Part shown: piece by piece, positions 44,651 to 53,341 of the stretch
How positions within the stretch are numbered: position 1 is the first letter of the stretch
Layout of the letters: every line of letters starts with the position of its first letter
Source: Escherichia phage UFV-AREG1
DNA length: 64,000 nucleotides
Sequence record: KX009778
Strand: one strand, 5' to 3'
The notes under the pieces: model-generated
What the model was told of the DNA's origin: nothing
The model's database searches: none
What the model saw: only the letters and a program-made list of their open reading frames with translations
Made by a program: the position numbers and the translations under genes

Positions 44651-44893
44651 TTATTCCTTAATTCCTAGTACTTGTTTAAAAGTCTCGTCGTAATCAAGAC
44701 TTTGGCCCGTTTGTTCTTTATGTTTGTATATAATATCACTTACTTCTGATAGCATATTTTTATATGAACGAGTTAAAGCAGATTTAAGCACGCTGTATCT
44801 ATCAGGAAATTTACCATGTTCATTATAATAAGCTATTGCTAATTCACGGACTGCCTTTTCAGCAGCCTCCATATATTCTTTACGCTTGGTCAT
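44651..44893 (-). CDS. hypothetical small protein
   Basis: ORF 44651-45052; start moved to [13 protein letters not shown] so overlap with upstream gene is short. Confidence 0.4.
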
Positions 44894-45197
44894 TTTCTTC
44901 TCGGTCAAATCGGTGTTTACAATGGCGGCATTTATAACGAAGATTACTAGTCTGCCAATGGACCAATTGCACCTGTTCAGTTCCACATTCAGGGCAATTA
45001 GGAACGTTTTTAGAAGCCCTTTCGCGACGTTTAACCATAGCCATAATGGCATCCCATGCTGGAGGTTTAAAATCTAAATCGTCACAACCATGAATCTTTC
45101 CACGCATTTCCATATCATCTTCCTCACCAGCCATAATAATTTTAATTAAACTGGAATTACTTGAAGCTGCAATGTCTTCTAATAGACGCTTTTTCAT
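44880..45197 (-). CDS. zinc-ribbon protein
   Basis: 105 aa with CPECGTEQ...CRHCKHRF. Confidence 0.5.
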
Positions 45198-46123
45198 TTC
45201 AATACCTCAATAGCATTACGTAAACCATTTGCTTTTGCATTAAGAGCTTTTAACAATTTGGTGTGTTCTGCAATTTGGGCTTCAACTTCAATTAAGCGAG
45301 CATTGAGATATTCACGTTCTTCGCTCAGGTTATCAACCTTTTCTACTTTAGGTTCTTTTACAATTGGCTTGTATGTATTAGGGTTCTTCAGTTTAATTAG
45401 AATGCGTGAGCTGTATAACATTGAACCATTATCTTCGGTTTCGTCATACATTTCCACTACGTCCATCATCTCCACCATCGTGCAGAGTTTATAAGACAAC
45501 GAACGAATAGTTTTGTTGTGCTTATTAATTTCTCTAGCTGTCATGGTGCCGAGATTACGTGAGTAATAATAAGGAACCTGGATATTAATTAATACTGATG
45601 AACCACCTGGCTTGTGTGTTACTTCATCAGCAATAACCCAGTCCTTAACATGAACTGTATTTGTACGGTCATCACCCGCGGTAAACAGTTTGCGAGCATG
45701 CTTAAAAAGCATATTCACTTGGTCATTGAATTGACAGGCGAATTTATCAGCAAATTTAGTTTCAGGAATGGTAGATAACCAATCAGCCAAGTGGGTCTTT
45801 TTAACATCGTTAACAATAGTAAATTCAACCAAATCGGTTATAGATGTCGCAGATTTAATGAAGCTCGGCTTCATAAAGTTTTTAATGTTATCACTAGCTA
45901 CAGTAGAAGATAACAGACGAGAACGTTTAAACCATTGAAGCAAATTGCCTAACGAATGAGAATAAGCGTTTTGAGTATCTTTACAGATATGATTTTCCTG
46001 GCCAACATATTGAAGGAAATCACGAAGAATATTATTGATTACTGCTCTGTGCCCGATCTGATAATTACGATGTTTAGTAATAAGACTGTCAAAATAATCA
46101 ATATAATGTTTACGAGTTTTCAT
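45194..46123 (-). CDS. coiled-coil-tailed family protein, member 1
   Basis: 309 aa; starts MKTRKHYIDY; C-terminal heptad-like helix [44 protein letters not shown]. Confidence 0.55.
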   Translation of the reverse strand: MKTRKHYIDYFDSLITKHRNYQIGHRAVINNILRDFLQYVGQENHICKDTQNAYSHSLGNLLQWFKRSRLLSSTVASDNIKNFMKPSFIKSATSITDLVEFTIVNDVKKTHLADWLSTIPETKFADKFACQFNDQVNMLFKHARKLFTAGDDRTNTVHVKDWVIADEVTHKPGGSSVLINIQVPYYYSRNLGTMTAREINKHNKTIRSLSYKLCTMVEMMDVVEMYDETEDNGSMLYSSRILIKLKNPNTYKPIVKEPKVEKVDNLSEEREYLNARLIEVEAQIAEHTKLLKALNAKANGLRNAIEVLK

Positions 46124-46175
46124 ATTCTTCTCACTTGGTTAATGGTTTATACTCCGAGCCATCCTTGGCTTTAAA

Positions 46176-47177
46176 TTACTTAATTAACTGTAAAGCTTGT
46201 TCCAAACGATCAAGACGATTAACAGATTCTTCCCAAATCCTTTTAGCCTGCTCATATTCTTTCTGCGCTTTATTAGAAATTTCTAGAACTTCTTTATAAG
46301 CTTTTTCTAGTGCAATAACTTCTGGACGAATTTCTACCGGTTCAGGAGAATCATCAAGATTATCCATTAGTTCCTCAAGGGTAGTTTCTTCTTTAGGAGT
46401 ATTCACAATTTCATCACATTTTTGTTGGTAAATTTCTTTATCAGTCGGTGAGTACGCACACTTTACTTCACGAAGACTAACTACAATTTTATATCCTTCC
46501 CAACCGCATATATTCTTAAAAGGATATGTATGAATATTTTCTACTGTTTCCATACAAAGTAATGCGGTTTCTAATTGACGAGTTATAGTGCTAGCAATTG
46601 AGAAAAATTTATTAATGTTCTTTTGGTTAGTTTCTGGTGTAAAAAATCCATAATTCACAAAAATAGATACTTTATTTTTATCAAGTTCATATTCTTTTAT
46701 GATAATCATATCAGAAGCCAAAGGATGAATTTGACGATAATCGCCATAACATAATTTAGAAGCTGATTTTAGAATCTGTCCTTTGAAAAGCCTGAAATTA
46801 CTAATCCAACGACGAGTAAAAATATTCTCAGGGTCTTCTTTATTATTAAGATGATAAGAATTAACATCACCGAACCAATTATATCCTACTACATCTTTGG
46901 TTCGTTTAATTTCTTTCCCAAAATTACCAAGAATATCCCGATTAACCAAATATGAAAGAAGACGAGACTCTTTAAAGGTTTTCTTGATAACATCTTTATC
47001 TACACGACTAGAAATTTTACGAATTTCATGAATAAATTTAGTAGAAGAAACAATACCTGCATCAACACTATTGAGCCATTGATTGATAATAGAAATAACG
47101 CTATTTTGACCAAACATCGGTATAGCTTTATCATCAATAACACTATTGAATGATTTGATATATTCGTTACGAGTCAT
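46176..47177 (-). CDS. coiled-coil-tailed family protein, member 2
   Basis: ORF 46176-47228; start at MTRNEYIKSF after GAGGAG RBS and promoter 47206-47235; C-terminal helix ...ALEKAYKEVLEISNKAQKEYEQAKRIWEESVNRLDRLEQALQLIK. Confidence 0.55.
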   Translation of the reverse strand: MTRNEYIKSFNSVIDDKAIPMFGQNSVISIINQWLNSVDAGIVSSTKFIHEIRKISSRVDKDVIKKTFKESRLLSYLVNRDILGNFGKEIKRTKDVVGYNWFGDVNSYHLNNKEDPENIFTRRWISNFRLFKGQILKSASKLCYGDYRQIHPLASDMIIIKEYELDKNKVSIFVNYGFFTPETNQKNINKFFSIASTITRQLETALLCMETVENIHTYPFKNICGWEGYKIVVSLREVKCAYSPTDKEIYQQKCDEIVNTPKEETTLEELMDNLDDSPEPVEIRPEVIALEKAYKEVLEISNKAQKEYEQAKRIWEESVNRLDRLEQALQLIK

Positions 47178-47205
47178 ATTAATCTCCTCAGTAGAAAGTA
47201 AGAAC

Positions 47206-47235
47206 ATTATACCACATCCTTGTGGCAAAGTAAAC
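47206..47235 (-). promoter_or_regulatory. early promoter for coiled-coil family member 2
   Basis: minus strand GTTTAC-18-TATAAT; spacer CCACAAGGATGTGG also found in promoter 2429-2458. Confidence 0.55.
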
Positions 47236-48260
47236 TAGTTCAGTGCATTTAGTGCATTGTTCAGTTTAGAACGTTGCTTTGTCAGATTTTGAACCCTTGA
47301 CTGAGCTTGTTCTAACACCTTTTCAGCTTCTAGCACTTCATTTGTCGCTTTAACGAGTTCATCATCTACTGCCTTAAGAGACTTCTCAATCGCGTCAGCG
47401 TGCCATTTTTCTACAGGTTTAAAATTTGAATTTTCAGTAGGAAGAAAACTCACTTTATTAAGTTTACATGCATCTATATTGCTTGAGCTATACATCCAAA
47501 ATTTAGGATCGTTTGATGAGTAATTGGATAAATTTAAATTTAAGTTATCTTGCACTTCCTGCTTTTTCTCTTGCGTGACTTCGTCCTTTCTCAAAAAATC
47601 GTATTTAAATGAAACGATCATATCAAGTTCATACGTTGTTGTGTCTAATTTAAATCGTTCAAAACGAGGTAAAATCTTAGATTGAACAGCAGCAACAACA
47701 TCCATATACTTAAATGCTTCTGTCAACTGCGATTTAAGGCATTCGCAAATTGAAAGAGAATTTTTTGTATTAGGTTTAAAGCTAATTCGTGCAGTTCTAT
47801 TATTTTCTTTAAATGGTCTTACTTCCATCTGAAGAGTATAACCATCAAATTTCAGATTCTTTAAGTTAATATCAGAACCTTTTAATCGACTAGCCGTAGA
47901 CAAAATTTGCTTTAATTGTTTACGGAATAGAGCAATAAATCTCCATTCAAGACGATAATGATTTGGATTAAAAAATCCTGTTGATAAATCAACCTTACTC
48001 TGACCAACGCCTTGAACAAATAGAGGATTTTTATAATCAATAGTTTTACAGAAATCGGTGAGCTGCTCACGAGCAGTCATTTGTGTAATATACCCCGCTT
48101 TACTAAAATGACGTAACCATTCACTGCTATTCATATACTTAAAGTGAATGGAACTATTAACTCTATCAGGGTCTAAATTATTTTGGCACAAAAATGTCAT
48201 AACATTACGGGTATAGCTGGCATTACGAACCATATCTTCAATTTGAGAACGAGTTTTCAT
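47235..48260 (-). CDS. coiled-coil-tailed family protein, member 3
   Basis: 341 aa; starts MKTRSQIEDM; C-terminal helix ...ELVKATNEVLEAEKVLEQAQSRVQNLTKQRSKLNNALNALN. Confidence 0.55.
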   Translation of the reverse strand: MKTRSQIEDMVRNASYTRNVMTFLCQNNLDPDRVNSSIHFKYMNSSEWLRHFSKAGYITQMTAREQLTDFCKTIDYKNPLFVQGVGQSKVDLSTGFFNPNHYRLEWRFIALFRKQLKQILSTASRLKGSDINLKNLKFDGYTLQMEVRPFKENNRTARISFKPNTKNSLSICECLKSQLTEAFKYMDVVAAVQSKILPRFERFKLDTTTYELDMIVSFKYDFLRKDEVTQEKKQEVQDNLNLNLSNYSSNDPKFWMYSSSNIDACKLNKVSFLPTENSNFKPVEKWHADAIEKSLKAVDDELVKATNEVLEAEKVLEQAQSRVQNLTKQRSKLNNALNALN

Positions 48261-48268
48261 GGTATTCC

Positions 48269-49159
48269 TTAAGATTTAAGTAAATCAACAATTTTAATTA
48301 ACTTTTCACGCTCAGATTTAGCTTTACTACTCAATCCAGATAGTCTGAAAATTTCATCATCATATTGTTGAATAGAAATATTCAGCTCTTCAATTTGCTT
48401 ATTAAAATAATCAATTTGTTCAGAATGTTTTTCGTTACTACGAACTGGTACAGGTTTTGTAGGCAATTTAGTTGAACTAGATTCATCCGGGCGATAAATT
48501 AAAATACAACTTGAACCAATAGGGCATTTTGCACCAGATGAATATTCTAATGTTCCAGCTTCTTTTAAAACTTCAAAAGCTAAACAGAGATGATGTCCCA
48601 TATTAACATAATCTGTAGAGTGAGCTCTGATGTAATAATCATCTCCACGAATACTAAATTTAAAGCATTTAAGGTCTTCTGTATTATTGGTCTTAAAAAT
48701 CATTTGTTTATCTAGACCTTTAGCTAATCGAGCGCCCAATGCTAATAATCGTCGTTGATTTTCCCACAAATCCGCAATCATTTGGTCGAATGATAATTTC
48801 GGCATTAGTCGACCATAAAGGTCATATCCTTTATTATAATTACGAAGGATTTCACTCGCGTTAATACGAGACAATGCTCCAATTTTATTAAGGGCTTTCA
48901 TAATACGATTAGATAAACTCATTCCAGACCCGTTTGTTCGCTGTAAATGTTTTTCTAATCCAAATCCAATATCAACTTTAAACTTATCTAAAATTTCAGC
49001 ATGAACATCTTTGTCGATAACATTCAAATCCAAAGTTGGGTTAAATCTATGAAAAAATTTATCTGGCTCTCCACGACGAAATACAGTCCATTCATTCATC
49101 ATTTTTTTATTAACTAAAGATTTAATTACTGTATTGACATTATTAATTACTACTGACAT
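48269..49159 (-). CDS. coiled-coil-tailed family protein, member 4
   Basis: ORF 48269-49195; start at MSVVINNVNT after GAGGA RBS; C-terminal helix ...QIEELNISIQQYDDEIFRLSGLSSKAKSEREKLIKIVDLLKS. Confidence 0.5.
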   Translation of the reverse strand: MSVVINNVNTVIKSLVNKKMMNEWTVFRRGEPDKFFHRFNPTLDLNVIDKDVHAEILDKFKVDIGFGLEKHLQRTNGSGMSLSNRIMKALNKIGALSRINASEILRNYNKGYDLYGRLMPKLSFDQMIADLWENQRRLLALGARLAKGLDKQMIFKTNNTEDLKCFKFSIRGDDYYIRAHSTDYVNMGHHLCLAFEVLKEAGTLEYSSGAKCPIGSSCILIYRPDESSSTKLPTKPVPVRSNEKHSEQIDYFNKQIEELNISIQQYDDEIFRLSGLSSKAKSEREKLIKIVDLLKS

Positions 49160-49166
49160 ATTTTCC

Positions 49167-49574
49167 TCACTCAATTTCAATTTTACTAAATACACAGAAT
49201 ATGATTGAACAGACTACATAAGCACCACACACAGATTGAACTAATACCATCCCAAAGAACCAAACAATATTATCAAACAGTGTCTGTTTTACGTCGAAAG
49301 GACGTAAACTTACAGTAATATTATCACCTTTTTCTATTGAAGAATACATCTCTGGGGAAATATATTCACTAAATCTATAACCGTCTTTGAGTTCATATAC
49401 AGCAATAAACGATAAACTAGACCCCTTTCCTTGTGTTCCTGTAATGGTATTAACTACAGTAACATCATAATCTTTATAATGCATATAATCATTAATTGCG
49501 TAATAACCGTATGCAACTACTACACATAAACAACATATCAATAAATTCAATCTTTTAATTATCAACTGTTTCAT
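49167..49574 (-). CDS. membrane protein
   Basis: 135 aa with N- and C-terminal hydrophobic helices. Confidence 0.5.
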   Translation of the reverse strand: MKQLIIKRLNLLICCLCVVVAYGYYAINDYMHYKDYDVTVVNTITGTQGKGSSLSFIAVYELKDGYRFSEYISPEMYSSIEKGDNITVSLRPFDVKQTLFDNIVWFFGMVLVQSVCGAYVVCSIIFCVFSKIEIE

Positions 49575-49629
49575 AATAATCTCAATTAAAAGGGCTTAGA
49601 ACCATTATACCATCCTTGGTATAAAGCGG

Positions 49630-50157
49630 TTATGCGAGTACCGTCTTTAACCGTTCTTCAAACTTCCGAAGAGTATTTTGGCGTTCAGCTCTTTGCTTTT
49701 TGTAAGTTTCAATACGCTCTGAAATGAGAGTGTATCGTTCATTTACTGATTCTTTCATAAAATCAGGAATTTCACGAGAAGCTTTAATCTCATCAAATTT
49801 ATCAATAACAGCTTGCTCTTCAGCAATTAAGTTATCATACATCAAAATATCTTTCTTGATGAACTCAATATCTTCTTGAGTTACACGAGATAATTTAGAT
49901 GCTTTATCCTTTTTGTACTGTTCGTTAGTATCACGAGACCAGTGTAATGTACGATTTTTATTCGTATTTTTGTAAATTTCTACAATACCAATCTCATCAA
50001 TAATAACGATCCAATTCCAACGGGATTTGTAAATTTGTCCTCCATCAACTGTGATTTCACCTCCGATTGAGATGTCATTAAAGAACTTGCTTTGTGCTTC
50101 TGATTTAAATTTACCATCATTGTAATTTACCAGGTTGAAAATATCTTTAGCGTTCAT
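49630..50157 (-). CDS. hypothetical protein
   Basis: 175-aa ORF; promoter copy 50186-50215 upstream. Confidence 0.5.
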   Translation of the reverse strand: MNAKDIFNLVNYNDGKFKSEAQSKFFNDISIGGEITVDGGQIYKSRWNWIVIIDEIGIVEIYKNTNKNRTLHWSRDTNEQYKKDKASKLSRVTQEDIEFIKKDILMYDNLIAEEQAVIDKFDEIKASREIPDFMKESVNERYTLISERIETYKKQRAERQNTLRKFEERLKTVLA

Positions 50158-50532: not shown

Positions 50533-50621
50533 TTATCAGTTTAATTCTAGTCATCTTTTTGATGGCAGTCCATATAATCTATTTCTGAACTGCCTTTTTA
50601 TCTTAGAAGGCCTCTTATGAA

Positions 50622-51590
50622 TTATTTCAGAAGAGTAACCTCAGCGATTTCTTCCCAACCGTTTTTGTCGGTCATAATAAAGTCAGCAAGATAAAGAGCA
50701 GTACGCAGTGAAACATTGCGTAAACGATTAACATTGACTTTCATCCATGATAATGCTTTATAAGTTTCTTCATCAGAAAGACCGCGCTTTTGCATCATGT
50801 CGGTTGAAAGAATAACATCTTCAACCCTGACCATAATTTCTTCATTAGTGTGAACACCCAAATCCAAATAAACTGAGCGGGACACCAATGCTTGTAAATG
50901 TGGAGCAAGTTTAGTACCACGGTCTAATTCGCGGTCAATGTCAACGTTTGTGATAAAAACAATCGTTCCTTTAAATTCAAACTCACGCTCAATGCCTTTT
51001 TCTTCTAAGTAAGAAGACGCAGTACTCCAGCAGACTTTACGGGTCTCTCCAGTGTCCAGAGCGGCTTTTAGAAGATTAAGAATGTCCATATCAGAGAAAA
51101 CATCCACATCATCAATCAAAAGGACAGAATTCTCTTCACGATTATTCCAAAGCTGCTCATAAAGACCAATACCAGAGATTTTACCATTAATGCTTTTATA
51201 TTCAATGTATCCAATATCATTTGCTTTATTTAAAGCTTTATCTAAAGAATACGTTTTACCAATACCTGCTGCGCCAGAGATAATTAATGAACGAATATTT
51301 CCATTAATAATACCATTCGTCATCATTCCCATAACATTAAATCTTTTATTAATGCGGGTTTTCATATCTTCATATGATTCTTTAACTTCTTCAACTTTTA
51401 CACCATCATATGAAATATCTGATTTGTAAACCCAAACACCGCGACGTTTACCGTCAATTTCAACAAAAACTTTACCATCTCCTTGTGCATCTACCGGAGC
51501 ATTATCTGGGAACCATTCGCCTAAGAGCTCAAAAGTTCCAGAGATTTCTTTACCGAAGTAGATACCCTTATTGATAGTTACAGTTTTCAT
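50622..51590 (-). CDS. P-loop NTPase (AAA-like ATPase)
   Basis: Walker A GAAGIGKTYS and Walker B LLIDDVD; start moved to MKTVTINK behind shared leader; promoter 51628-51657. Confidence 0.6.
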   Translation of the reverse strand: MKTVTINKGIYFGKEISGTFELLGEWFPDNAPVDAQGDGKVFVEIDGKRRGVWVYKSDISYDGVKVEEVKESYEDMKTRINKRFNVMGMMTNGIINGNIRSLIISGAAGIGKTYSLDKALNKANDIGYIEYKSINGKISGIGLYEQLWNNREENSVLLIDDVDVFSDMDILNLLKAALDTGETRKVCWSTASSYLEEKGIEREFEFKGTIVFITNVDIDRELDRGTKLAPHLQALVSRSVYLDLGVHTNEEIMVRVEDVILSTDMMQKRGLSDEETYKALSWMKVNVNRLRNVSLRTALYLADFIMTDKNGWEEIAEVTLLK

Positions 51591-51627
51591 TTTATTCTCC
51601 AAATCCGTATCAGTAGTTGATAGTTGT

Positions 51628-51717: not shown

Positions 51718-52203
51718 TTATTCCATTTCTACTATGTGCATGTTCTTTTTGCTATCAAAATATATGTTTTTAACTATTAACTCAGAATTAATTGGCAGTA
51801 AAAACTCTCTTTCATAATCTACCATGCAAAGATTATCATAAAGCTTGTTAAGCTTATCATCGTCAGTTTGACCAGATTCTTCAATTGCGATTAAATTTTC
51901 TAAAATGTCAATCATAGCAGTCGAATAGTCGAAAACGTTTGCATTTTTTAACACTACTAAAACATTAGTCATATAGCGTTCTGCCGCAAACGTTTCAGCT
52001 ATATGAGACTCACTGCTAAAGGAAGTTATTCTTTTAAATTTGATTCTCCTATTAACTTCAAACTTATAAGATAGCACTTCCTCTATTGTAAGTCCTCTAA
52101 AAAGTGTGTCTTTAATCTCAAGTTTGTCTTTAATGTAATCATTAACACGCTTATGATTAAAATCATTAATTTTGTTGCCAAGGCATTGCATTAAAATATG
52201 CAT
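51718..52203 (-). CDS. hypothetical protein
   Basis: 161-aa ORF flanked by stem-loop/promoter cassettes. Confidence 0.5.
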   Translation of the reverse strand: MHILMQCLGNKINDFNHKRVNDYIKDKLEIKDTLFRGLTIEEVLSYKFEVNRRIKFKRITSFSSESHIAETFAAERYMTNVLVVLKNANVFDYSTAMIDILENLIAIEESGQTDDDKLNKLYDNLCMVDYEREFLLPINSELIVKNIYFDSKKNMHIVEME

Positions 52204-52327: not shown

Positions 52328-53341
52328 TCATTTATAATAACTTCGGTGGTTTTCAAGATAAACCTTCTCAAGGAAATCATCCCAAAAACCCATGTCTACT
52401 TTTTGCTGCATACCGTTCTTAGAAGCTTCAATGGATGCTGCTTCTACTTGATCGACCACATCTTCCAAAAACTCTTGAACAGTTTTAAATGGATGTTTAC
52501 CCAGCTTCACGTCGAGAATAAACGGAGCATCTTGAAGTGGATAGACTAAGTCACCAGTTTTGTAAATTTCCAATAGTTGGAGTCCACCACGACAAGCATG
52601 ACTCAATGCTTTCCAGTCAATACCTTCATTCGCTTCAGCCTTACGAGCACGTTCACCGTATTCGGCATCAAGTTTATTCAAAGACTGCTTAAGCTCAATA
52701 AGAGAAAGTGTTGTCTGATATTTACGACCCAACACAGTGTAGAACGTTTGTGGACCGGTTTTCTCATGATTATGGAATACCCATTCACAGAATTCGTTCT
52801 CTGGAAGACGATGCTTAATATCTTCAACTTTAGTGCGACGTTGCTTAATGGAACCGTCTTCTTGGTAATCAACCCATTGCTCAGGGATTTGATTAACTAC
52901 TTTCAATACATCACGCAATGCGGCCAAACGAGAACCCTTAACACCATATTTAGAAGCTTGCTTGCGGACATATCCTAAATAGGATTTCATGTTAGTCGTA
53001 TAAAAACGAGAACGATTGTCTTGAATAAACTTCCATACATCAGGCAAATCAGATTTAACTACCAGTTCAGGTGGAGTGTGAAGCATATCCAATGCTACAG
53101 TTTCACCATCTGCTGCTAATTTAAAGAAATATTTAAGACTGTATAGTTCATGGTCAATATCATCTTTAGTGTTTTTAGATGATGTGTTGTTCGTGTTTTT
53201 ACTCATATGCTCTTTAACATTTCCGATAAGAATATCACGAGCAGGAGGAACAAAGATTTCTTTAAAATCTACATCAGATTCTGGAGTAGAAGTTCCATAA
53301 AGATGACTACCAAAATAGCTTTTCATTACTGTTTTCATCAT
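52328..53341 (-). CDS. nucleotidyltransferase-fold protein (Pol-beta-like NTase superfamily)
   Basis: 337 aa; N-terminal GS-x(9)-DxD signature (YFGSHLYGTSTPESDVDF) typical of minimal NTase fold; function unknown. Confidence 0.55.
   Translation of the reverse strand: MMKTVMKSYFGSHLYGTSTPESDVDFKEIFVPPARDILIGNVKEHMSKNTNNTSSKNTKDDIDHELYSLKYFFKLAADGETVALDMLHTPPELVVKSDLPDVWKFIQDNRSRFYTTNMKSYLGYVRKQASKYGVKGSRLAALRDVLKVVNQIPEQWVDYQEDGSIKQRRTKVEDIKHRLPENEFCEWVFHNHEKTGPQTFYTVLGRKYQTTLSLIELKQSLNKLDAEYGERARKAEANEGIDWKALSHACRGGLQLLEIYKTGDLVYPLQDAPFILDVKLGKHPFKTVQEFLEDVVDQVEAASIEASKNGMQQKVDMGFWDDFLEKVYLENHRSYYK

Follow-up and report, generated by a model that had tools for sequence, protein, structure and literature searches.

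The four adjacent minus-strand genes nrdC.3 to nrdC.6 in a 64,000-nucleotide (nt) stretch of Escherichia phage UFV-AREG1 (KX009778; the whole stretch analysed is called the window below) have their closest described counterpart in nrdC.5 of phage T4. An evolved T4 clone with a deletion was unable to infect ECOR17, owing to a Dsr1 homolog, and T4 nrdC.5 supplied in trans restored plating of the deletion mutant on Dsr1 cells (Srikant, Guegler and Laub, eLife 2022, PMC9391042). That paper does not relate nrdC.5 to nrdC.3, nrdC.4 or nrdC.6 and does not describe a domain architecture, and these three genes are without assigned function although T4 is the best-studied phage. The databases hold three separate families without an assigned function (Pfam PF26897, PF23882 and PF26899; PHROGs 1435, 2351 and 2257), with each protein in one of them and NrdC.3 and NrdC.4 already joined. 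Profile and structure comparison here joins the three into one superfamily. All four genes belong, as diverged copies, to a single family of accessory genes in the Straboviridae, and the superfamily takes in relatives from Winklervirus, Kagamiyamavirus and Acinetobacter phages. We regard the homology and architecture of this four-gene family as close to certain.

The window comes from a Tequatrovirus, a T4-like phage, and its stretch 45000–49600 is 97% identical to genomes such as AV122 and NR1. The annotation of NR1 labels the four genes NrdC.3, NrdC.4, NrdC.5 and NrdC.6, and the array has nrdC, nrdC.1 and nrdC.2 to one side of it and nrdC.7 to nrdC.11 to the other. Judged by its sequence, gene 47235–48260 is the ortholog of T4 nrdC.5, the published anti-Dsr1 gene: the neighbours and gene order are the same, the product is ~91% identical to T4 NrdC.5 over 333 amino acids (aa), and DUF7235 (PF23882) covers it at full length, with residues 1–341 on profile positions 1–307 of 307 (381.5 bits against a gathering cut-off of 30). 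The rescue is known for the T4 allele against ECOR17 Dsr1, not for the window allele. A possible mechanistic model is DSAD1, which PMC10981675 and PMC11087589 present as a phage protein countering the sirtuin defence DSR2, a system that senses the tail tube, a protein of the virion. DSAD1 differs in its target (DSR2, not Dsr1) and its origin (Bacillus phages). Already known are the genes themselves, the three families in the databases and the phenotype of nrdC.5; the literature searched did not yield the four-gene and Straboviridae superfamily, the domain model or the nrdC.3 cassette dimorphism set out below.

Relationships among the four proteins

A first-pass annotation, made from the letters of the DNA, had pointed to four tandem minus-strand genes of about 296–341 aa, two of them beginning MKTR and one MTR. 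The open reading frames (ORFs) bear out both the arrangement and the starts:

45194–46123, minus strand: nrdC.3, 309 aa, starting MKTRKH; paralog of nrdC.4; PHROG 1435, with PF26897 (Phage_T4_Y04OP) on homologs
45329–45943, minus strand: central cassette of nrdC.3 (aa ~61–265), divergent from the T4/T6 alleles and closer to Mosigvirus PhAPEC2
45197–45331, minus strand: C-terminal heptad helix of nrdC.3, last ~45 aa, ending ...LRNAIEVLK
46176–47177, minus strand: nrdC.4, 333 aa from its ATG, starting MTRNEY (the mechanical ORF reaches 47228); PHROG 1435
46179–46325, minus strand: C-terminal helix of nrdC.4, aa 285–333, ending ...LEQALQLIK
47206–47234, minus strand: putative sigma-70 early-type promoter-like site in the nrdC.5–nrdC.4 gap, just upstream of nrdC.4; a consensus match only (TTTACT, 17 nt, TATAAT, with an upstream TG)
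47235–48260, minus strand: nrdC.5, 341 aa, starting MKTRSQ; DUF7235 (PF23882, expect value (E) 4e-114)
47238–47414, minus strand: C-terminal heptad helix of nrdC.5, aa ~283–341, ending ...LNNALNALN
48269–49159, minus strand: nrdC.6, 296 aa from its ATG, starting MSVVIN; PF26899 on homologs
48272–48424, minus strand: C-terminal helix of nrdC.6, aa 246–296, with a kink at SGLSS, ending ...LIKIVDLLKS

NrdC.3 and NrdC.4 are the sole pair linked by direct BLASTP (25.5% identity over 231 body residues, E 1e-6), and both fall in phrog_1435 (E 9e-116 and 6e-169), next to phrog_2351 for NrdC.5 and phrog_2257 for NrdC.6 (E 4e-152). Pfam divides them in the same way, into PF26897 for NrdC.3 and NrdC.4, DUF7235 for NrdC.5 and PF26899 for NrdC.6. 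PF26897 was absent from the Pfam copy that we scanned, and every homolog found with the NrdC.3/NrdC.4 alignment carries a precomputed match to it; NrdC.6 homologs of 95–98% identity bear PF26899. To compare across these families we used non-redundant profiles that combine database homologs with the syntenic genes of VR25, JS98, PhAPEC2, EcS1 and CBH8. With hhalign, the NrdC.5 profile matched the NrdC.3/NrdC.4 profile at 89–95% probability in local mode, over 132–149 body columns, and at 94–97% in global mode, against 0.2–2.3% for reversed-profile controls; with the query direction exchanged the value was 71%. The alignment matches up the 'TR..(Y/I)I' start, the 'FGK' motif, the long helix, the 'A(F/L)..MD.V' helix and the terminal 'L..A(L/I)..LK'. 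The N-terminal ~250-aa bodies, which the first-pass annotation had taken to differ between members, are divergent but not unrelated, being versions of one fold.

Support for the family link also comes from two natural intermediates. EcS1 ORF091 has a tail of NrdC.5 type (E 2e-7) and matches NrdC.6 bodies (E 6e-4 to 6e-3), and a metagenomic protein, P0269, combines a body of NrdC.3/NrdC.4 type (24% over 346 aa, E 4e-8) with a tail of NrdC.5 type (31% over 71 aa, E 1e-8). By sequence, NrdC.6 is not significantly similar to the NrdC.3/NrdC.4 and NrdC.5 profiles when these are used alone (1.6–2.4% in hhalign); once the EcS1 and CBH8 intermediates are added to the NrdC.5 profile, the value rises to 38–60%, and this extended profile scores 36.4 against NrdC.6, compared with 11.5 for the reversed control.

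Predicted structures carry the argument further. AlphaFold2 models were made for NrdC.4 (predicted local distance difference test (pLDDT) 82.8, from a 36-sequence alignment) and NrdC.6 (pLDDT 77.8, 30 sequences), and the order of elements is identical in both: after a helix bundle at the N-terminus come a long helix and a first beta hairpin, then another helix and hairpin, and finally a linker of low confidence that leads to the long helix at the C-terminus. The NrdC.4 model comprises an N-terminal helical domain, an alpha/beta domain, a disordered linker at residues 261–283 and a terminal helix at 285–332; in the NrdC.6 model the terminal helix follows its low-confidence linker as two segments, 246–272 and 278–295. 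Searched with Foldseek against the predicted viral structures of BFVD, the NrdC.4 model retrieves JS10 NrdC.6 from end to end, at E 2.5e-5 and probability 1.0. It also matches 300–370-aa proteins of Pectobacterium phage PM2, Enterobacter phage IME523, Acinetobacter phage Acj61 (two proteins), Erwinia phage Cronus, Serratia phages CBH8 and PS2, Yersinia phage fHe-Yen9-01 and Klebsiella phage P545, with Aeromonas phage Aeh1 as a weaker match (E 1.5e-2, probability 0.80). The neighbours of the NrdC.6 model overlap with these: PM2, IME523, Acj61 E5E4A2, fHe-Yen9-01, fPS-65 (308 aa) and PS2.

On the strength of these models we treat NrdC.6 as a family member that is well supported but not proven. 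That it is no true paralog, and that a common alpha/beta sandwich and a coiled coil have converged, seems to us very unlikely. Such convergence would fit the direct profile comparison of NrdC.6 with NrdC.3/NrdC.4, which at 1.6–2.0% lies barely above the reversed controls, and the template modelling (TM) scores of the NrdC.4–JS10 NrdC.6 match, which are just 0.36–0.41. It sits poorly with the certainty that Foldseek assigns to that match along the whole chain, with the shared BFVD neighbours and identical order of helices and hairpins, with the place of nrdC.6 beside the others in a syntenic slot, with EcS1 ORF091 as a bridging protein, and with the extended profile, which outscores its reversed control. 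Among NrdC.6 homologs, P0155 (Shigella phage Sf25 gp220, 378 aa; 97% identical over 88% of the query) is ~80 residues longer than usual, because of a fusion or of a start called further upstream.

A search for distant relatives beyond the T-even phages, made with the NrdC.3/NrdC.4 profile in 1.84 billion proteins, turned up only 11 representatives, each a member of this same family, which points to a narrow, phage-restricted family. An NCBIfam search of the array proteins gave sub-threshold noise only, and a sequence search for solved structures of relatives gave none, only noise and generic coiled-coil matches.

The C-terminal helix and the central domain

All four proteins end in a heptad-patterned helix of ~45–59 residues. 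The best 35-residue heptad window of each whole protein sits in its last ~60 residues, where hydrophobic residues fill 9–10 of 10 a/d positions; P is 0.010, 0.070, 0.000 and 0.010 when the whole proteins are shuffled, and <= 0.004 when shuffling is confined to the heptad window. Proline or glycine occurs 0–1 times per protein in the last 45 residues, and generic coiled-coil families (DUF4164, PgrA, Myc zipper) are matched weakly. A terminal motif, L-x-x-[AIV]-[ILMV]-x-x-[LI]-[KNI]-x(0-1)-COOH, picks out exactly these four proteins among the window's 149 stop-to-stop segments that are 80 aa or longer, for a pattern defined after the sequences had been inspected. The heptad windows, together with the terminal helices in the NrdC.4 and NrdC.6 models, agree with the common architecture first proposed, a body followed by an amphipathic heptad helix. 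Conservation of the tail is a more qualified matter. Among orthologs the tails are nearly invariant, and dN/dS (the ratio of nonsynonymous to synonymous substitution rates) over the last 50 codons is 0.06 in nrdC.4 and 0.02 in nrdC.6, compared with 0.24 and 0.13 in the bodies. Between paralogs, they are alike in kind and in the last ~10 residues but cannot be significantly aligned along their length across all four (1–17% in tail-only hhalign, with the NrdC.5 and EcS1 tails, at 96%, as the exception).

We predict that these tails mediate oligomerisation. The helix might instead be a common docking element for one shared host or phage partner, with the bodies as adaptors, and not a self-association coiled coil; we consider this unlikely. 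It would account for conservation between paralogs that peaks at the extreme C-terminus (L..A[IL]..LK-COOH) and for the near-identity of ortholog tails, and P0269, which joins the body of one subfamily to the tail of another, suggests that the tail acts as a portable module. Hydrophobic a/d positions maintained over five heptads are, however, the pattern expected of a self-associating coiled coil, no candidate docking partner is known, and for the greater part of their length the tails of different paralogs give no significant alignment.

The central alpha/beta domain may resemble, in its predicted fold, a phage tail terminator; the match is moderate only. A sequence link to tail-terminator families was sought and rejected, as isolated central domains, searched against Pfam and PHROGs up to E 10, gave no tail-terminator match. 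Tail terminator and completion proteins (lambda gpU, T5 p142, DUF3168, SPP1 gp17-like) are without sequence similarity to the NrdC proteins, which have an extra N-terminal helical domain and a coiled-coil-like tail, are encoded in the early nrdC region and not in a tail module, are dispensable and are not known in virions. We judge it extremely unlikely that these proteins, as relatives of tail terminators, serve in tail or neck assembly or form minor parts of the virion, despite the possible resemblance in fold.

Evolution of the array and its proposed role

Family members always lie between nrdC and nrdC.10, in a slot that is taken up by a single copy in EcS1 and in CBH8; Acj61 has two copies there, VR25, JS98 and PhAPEC2 have three each, and Tequatrovirus has four. 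Mosigvirus has the NrdC.3 type without the NrdC.4 type, and Gaprivervirus and Dhakavirus the NrdC.4 type without the NrdC.3 type; because the two types are split by genus, the Tequatrovirus pair may be two lineage alleles brought together, rather than the product of local duplication. The two Acj61 genes, p120 and p121 (locus L012, 35452–37472; 330 and 304 aa), are adjacent in the slot and fit BFVD entries E5E4A1 and E5E4A2 by length and record order. Sequence comparison detects no similarity between the two, or of either to the T-even family (hhalign <= 2.5%), to which they are linked only by Foldseek matches, which tie them to NrdC.4 and NrdC.6, by synteny and by the coiled-coil-like helices in which both end.

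The array shows no sign of the selection that had been anticipated. Diversifying selection was suggested at first reading; in the sense of dN/dS above 1 it is not supported, since among six Tequatroviruses the gene-wide values for nrdC.3 to nrdC.6 are 0.11–0.28, and even in the divergent nrdC.3 cassette the value is 0.2. The variable body on a conserved helix is, by contrast, seen directly in nrdC.3 alleles. Window NrdC.3 shares 95–97% amino-acid identity with RB5, RB14 and NR1, 77% with Mosigvirus PhAPEC2 and 60–62% with T4 and T6, in a region where most flanking genes are 91–100% identical to T4 (nrdC.2, at 87%, is the exception). The divergence is limited to residues ~60–270, where the window and T4/T6 alleles are 36–66% identical; the first 60 residues are 86–100% identical, and the last two alignment blocks (the final ~39 residues) 76–100%. 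The gene is thus dimorphic within Tequatrovirus, in the manner of a cassette. Saturated dS (~1.9) and the low dN/dS in the cassette point to old alleles moved by recombination, not to fast change in place.

Around T4 nrdC.5, other genes also have counter-defence activity: the neighbour gp49.2 counters OLD (PMC13096335), and NrdC.1 counters Septu (bioRxiv 2025.11.20.689424). In T4, nrdC.3 to nrdC.6 are all non-essential according to the HIDEN-SEQ supplementary tables, and a deletion of nrdC.1 to nrdC.6 is viable (PMC9825161). Given the published action of T4 nrdC.5 against Dsr1, the four genes probably encode a set of anti-defence proteins. The anti-defence part of the earlier suggestion is backed for nrdC.5 by the T4 rescue, and nrdC.3, nrdC.4 and nrdC.6 would be anti-defence proteins by extension. 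We lean, with some reserve, towards a battery of diversified accessory proteins, made early and directed at neutralising host defence proteins, in which the body would give specificity and the helix oligomerisation or docking. Family members would be early, non-essential, non-virion proteins built from an N-terminal helical domain, a central alpha/beta domain of possibly tail-terminator-like fold, and a flexible linker leading into the heptad helix. Their most likely job would be stoichiometric inhibition of host anti-phage defence proteins, by predicted direct binding. The variable body, and especially the central domain, would choose the target; the conserved tail would form dimers or higher oligomers or dock to a common partner; and several paralogs with exchangeable central cassettes could widen the range of defences countered.

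A number of points weigh against this reading. The phenotype is for nrdC.5 only and comes from a T4 protein ~91% identical to that of the window; no binding partner is known, and the Dsr1 mechanism is unpublished in the literature searched, DSR1 still being called poorly characterised in a 2026 paper. The conditional comparison of HIDEN-SEQ, in the part of that source available, reports no significant effect for nrdC.3 to nrdC.6, and the gene-wide dN/dS values carry no arms-race signature. Our coiled-coil call rests on a heptad score devised here and on monomer models, and NrdC.6 is joined to the other three by predicted structures only. The TM-scores of the Foldseek matches are modest (0.2–0.48), as is expected of multi-domain models with a free linker and helix.

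Two other accounts of function can be set beside the battery. The four genes might be related and yet only nrdC.5 be anti-defence, the others having different host-takeover or housekeeping roles or being redundant or decaying copies, which we judge somewhat unlikely. No phenotype is reported for nrdC.3, nrdC.4 or nrdC.6, and individual phages have often lost, split or fused genes of the array: in phage G8 nrdC.4 is split, in T2 it is in pieces and EC121 lacks it; nrdC.6 is cut to 47 codons in Pinarejo; and P0056 (299 aa, on a 167-kb contig) is a natural chimera of NrdC.5 residues ~145–270 with the C-terminal half of NrdC.3, implying deletion of nrdC.4 and parts of its neighbours. Against this account stand the purifying selection on all four genes and their retention in hundreds of Tequatrovirus genomes; the array sits amid proven anti-defence genes, and accessory genes that counter defences are typically lost and reshuffled in any case. 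The second account takes the predicted fold at face value. The proteins would be early decoys on the fold of a virion neck protein (tail-terminator-like), occupying the structure-sensing domains of bacterial pattern-recognition defence proteins before the true late proteins appear, with each paralog and exchangeable cassette tuned to another receptor and the coiled-coil tail adding avidity. A 2026 preprint reports that the major capsid protein triggers Dsr1 through its tetratricopeptide repeat (TPR) sensor and that a different sensor family, Avs15, recognises tail terminators (PMC12803255). That Dsr1 is reported to sense a capsid protein and not a terminator counts against decoys, as does a fold match that is moderate only, and we find this account distinctly unlikely.

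If the four genes form one family with a variable centre and a constrained tail, nrdC.3, nrdC.4 and nrdC.6 offer themselves as candidates in the search for further counter-defence factors. The domain model that follows can be put to the test and reaches relatives in Acinetobacter, Serratia, Erwinia, Pectobacterium and Klebsiella phages, and the tail-terminator likeness, if confirmed, would tie counter-defence to mimicry of the virion proteins that defences are now reported to sense.

Neighbouring genes

Downstream of nrdC.3, with a 4-nt overlap with its stop, nrdC.2 (44880–45197, minus strand) encodes 105 aa with a C-terminal zinc-ribbon signature and weak Pfam matches to DUF7129 and Zn_ribbon families, all under cut-off. 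Its length and sequence vary among Tequatroviruses, and its dS is high (~0.6), as in nrdC.3. On the other side of the array, nrdC.8 (49630–50157, minus strand; 175 aa) also ends in a long charged helix (...KKQRAERQNTLRKFEERLKTVLA). We considered NrdC.8 as a fifth family member and rejected it, since its hhalign scores equal those of reversed controls; the sole lead is a weak Foldseek match to a 175-aa KPV15 protein. In a paper on DRT1, T4 nrdC.8 is among the genes with lower transcript levels in DRT1-expressing cells.

Further along, nrdC.10 (50622–51602, minus strand; 326 aa) has sub-threshold Pfam matches to P-loop/AAA and STAND-NTPase families (AAA_14, AAA_22, nSTAND3) and weak matches to clamp-loader PHROGs, and is 74–78% conserved even in Kagamiyamavirus and Winklervirus. 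A seg-like homing endonuclease gene (RB32ORF093c, 720 nt) lies between nrdC.9 and nrdC.10 in T6, RB5 and RB14; the corresponding gap in the window, 50533–50621, is without it. Between nrdC.10 and nrdC.11 (52328–53341) lies a 161-aa ORF (51718–52203, minus strand), at a site where NR1 has no annotated coding sequence, only predicted terminators. A Pfam search with this ORF gave no match. It does match PHROG 832, 'RNA polymerase ADP-ribosylase', at profile positions 1275–1424 of 1480 (E 7e-24), and FRGLT, SFSSES and YEREF motifs can be picked out by eye; from its sequence it looks like a stand-alone Alt-like ADP-ribosyltransferase domain.

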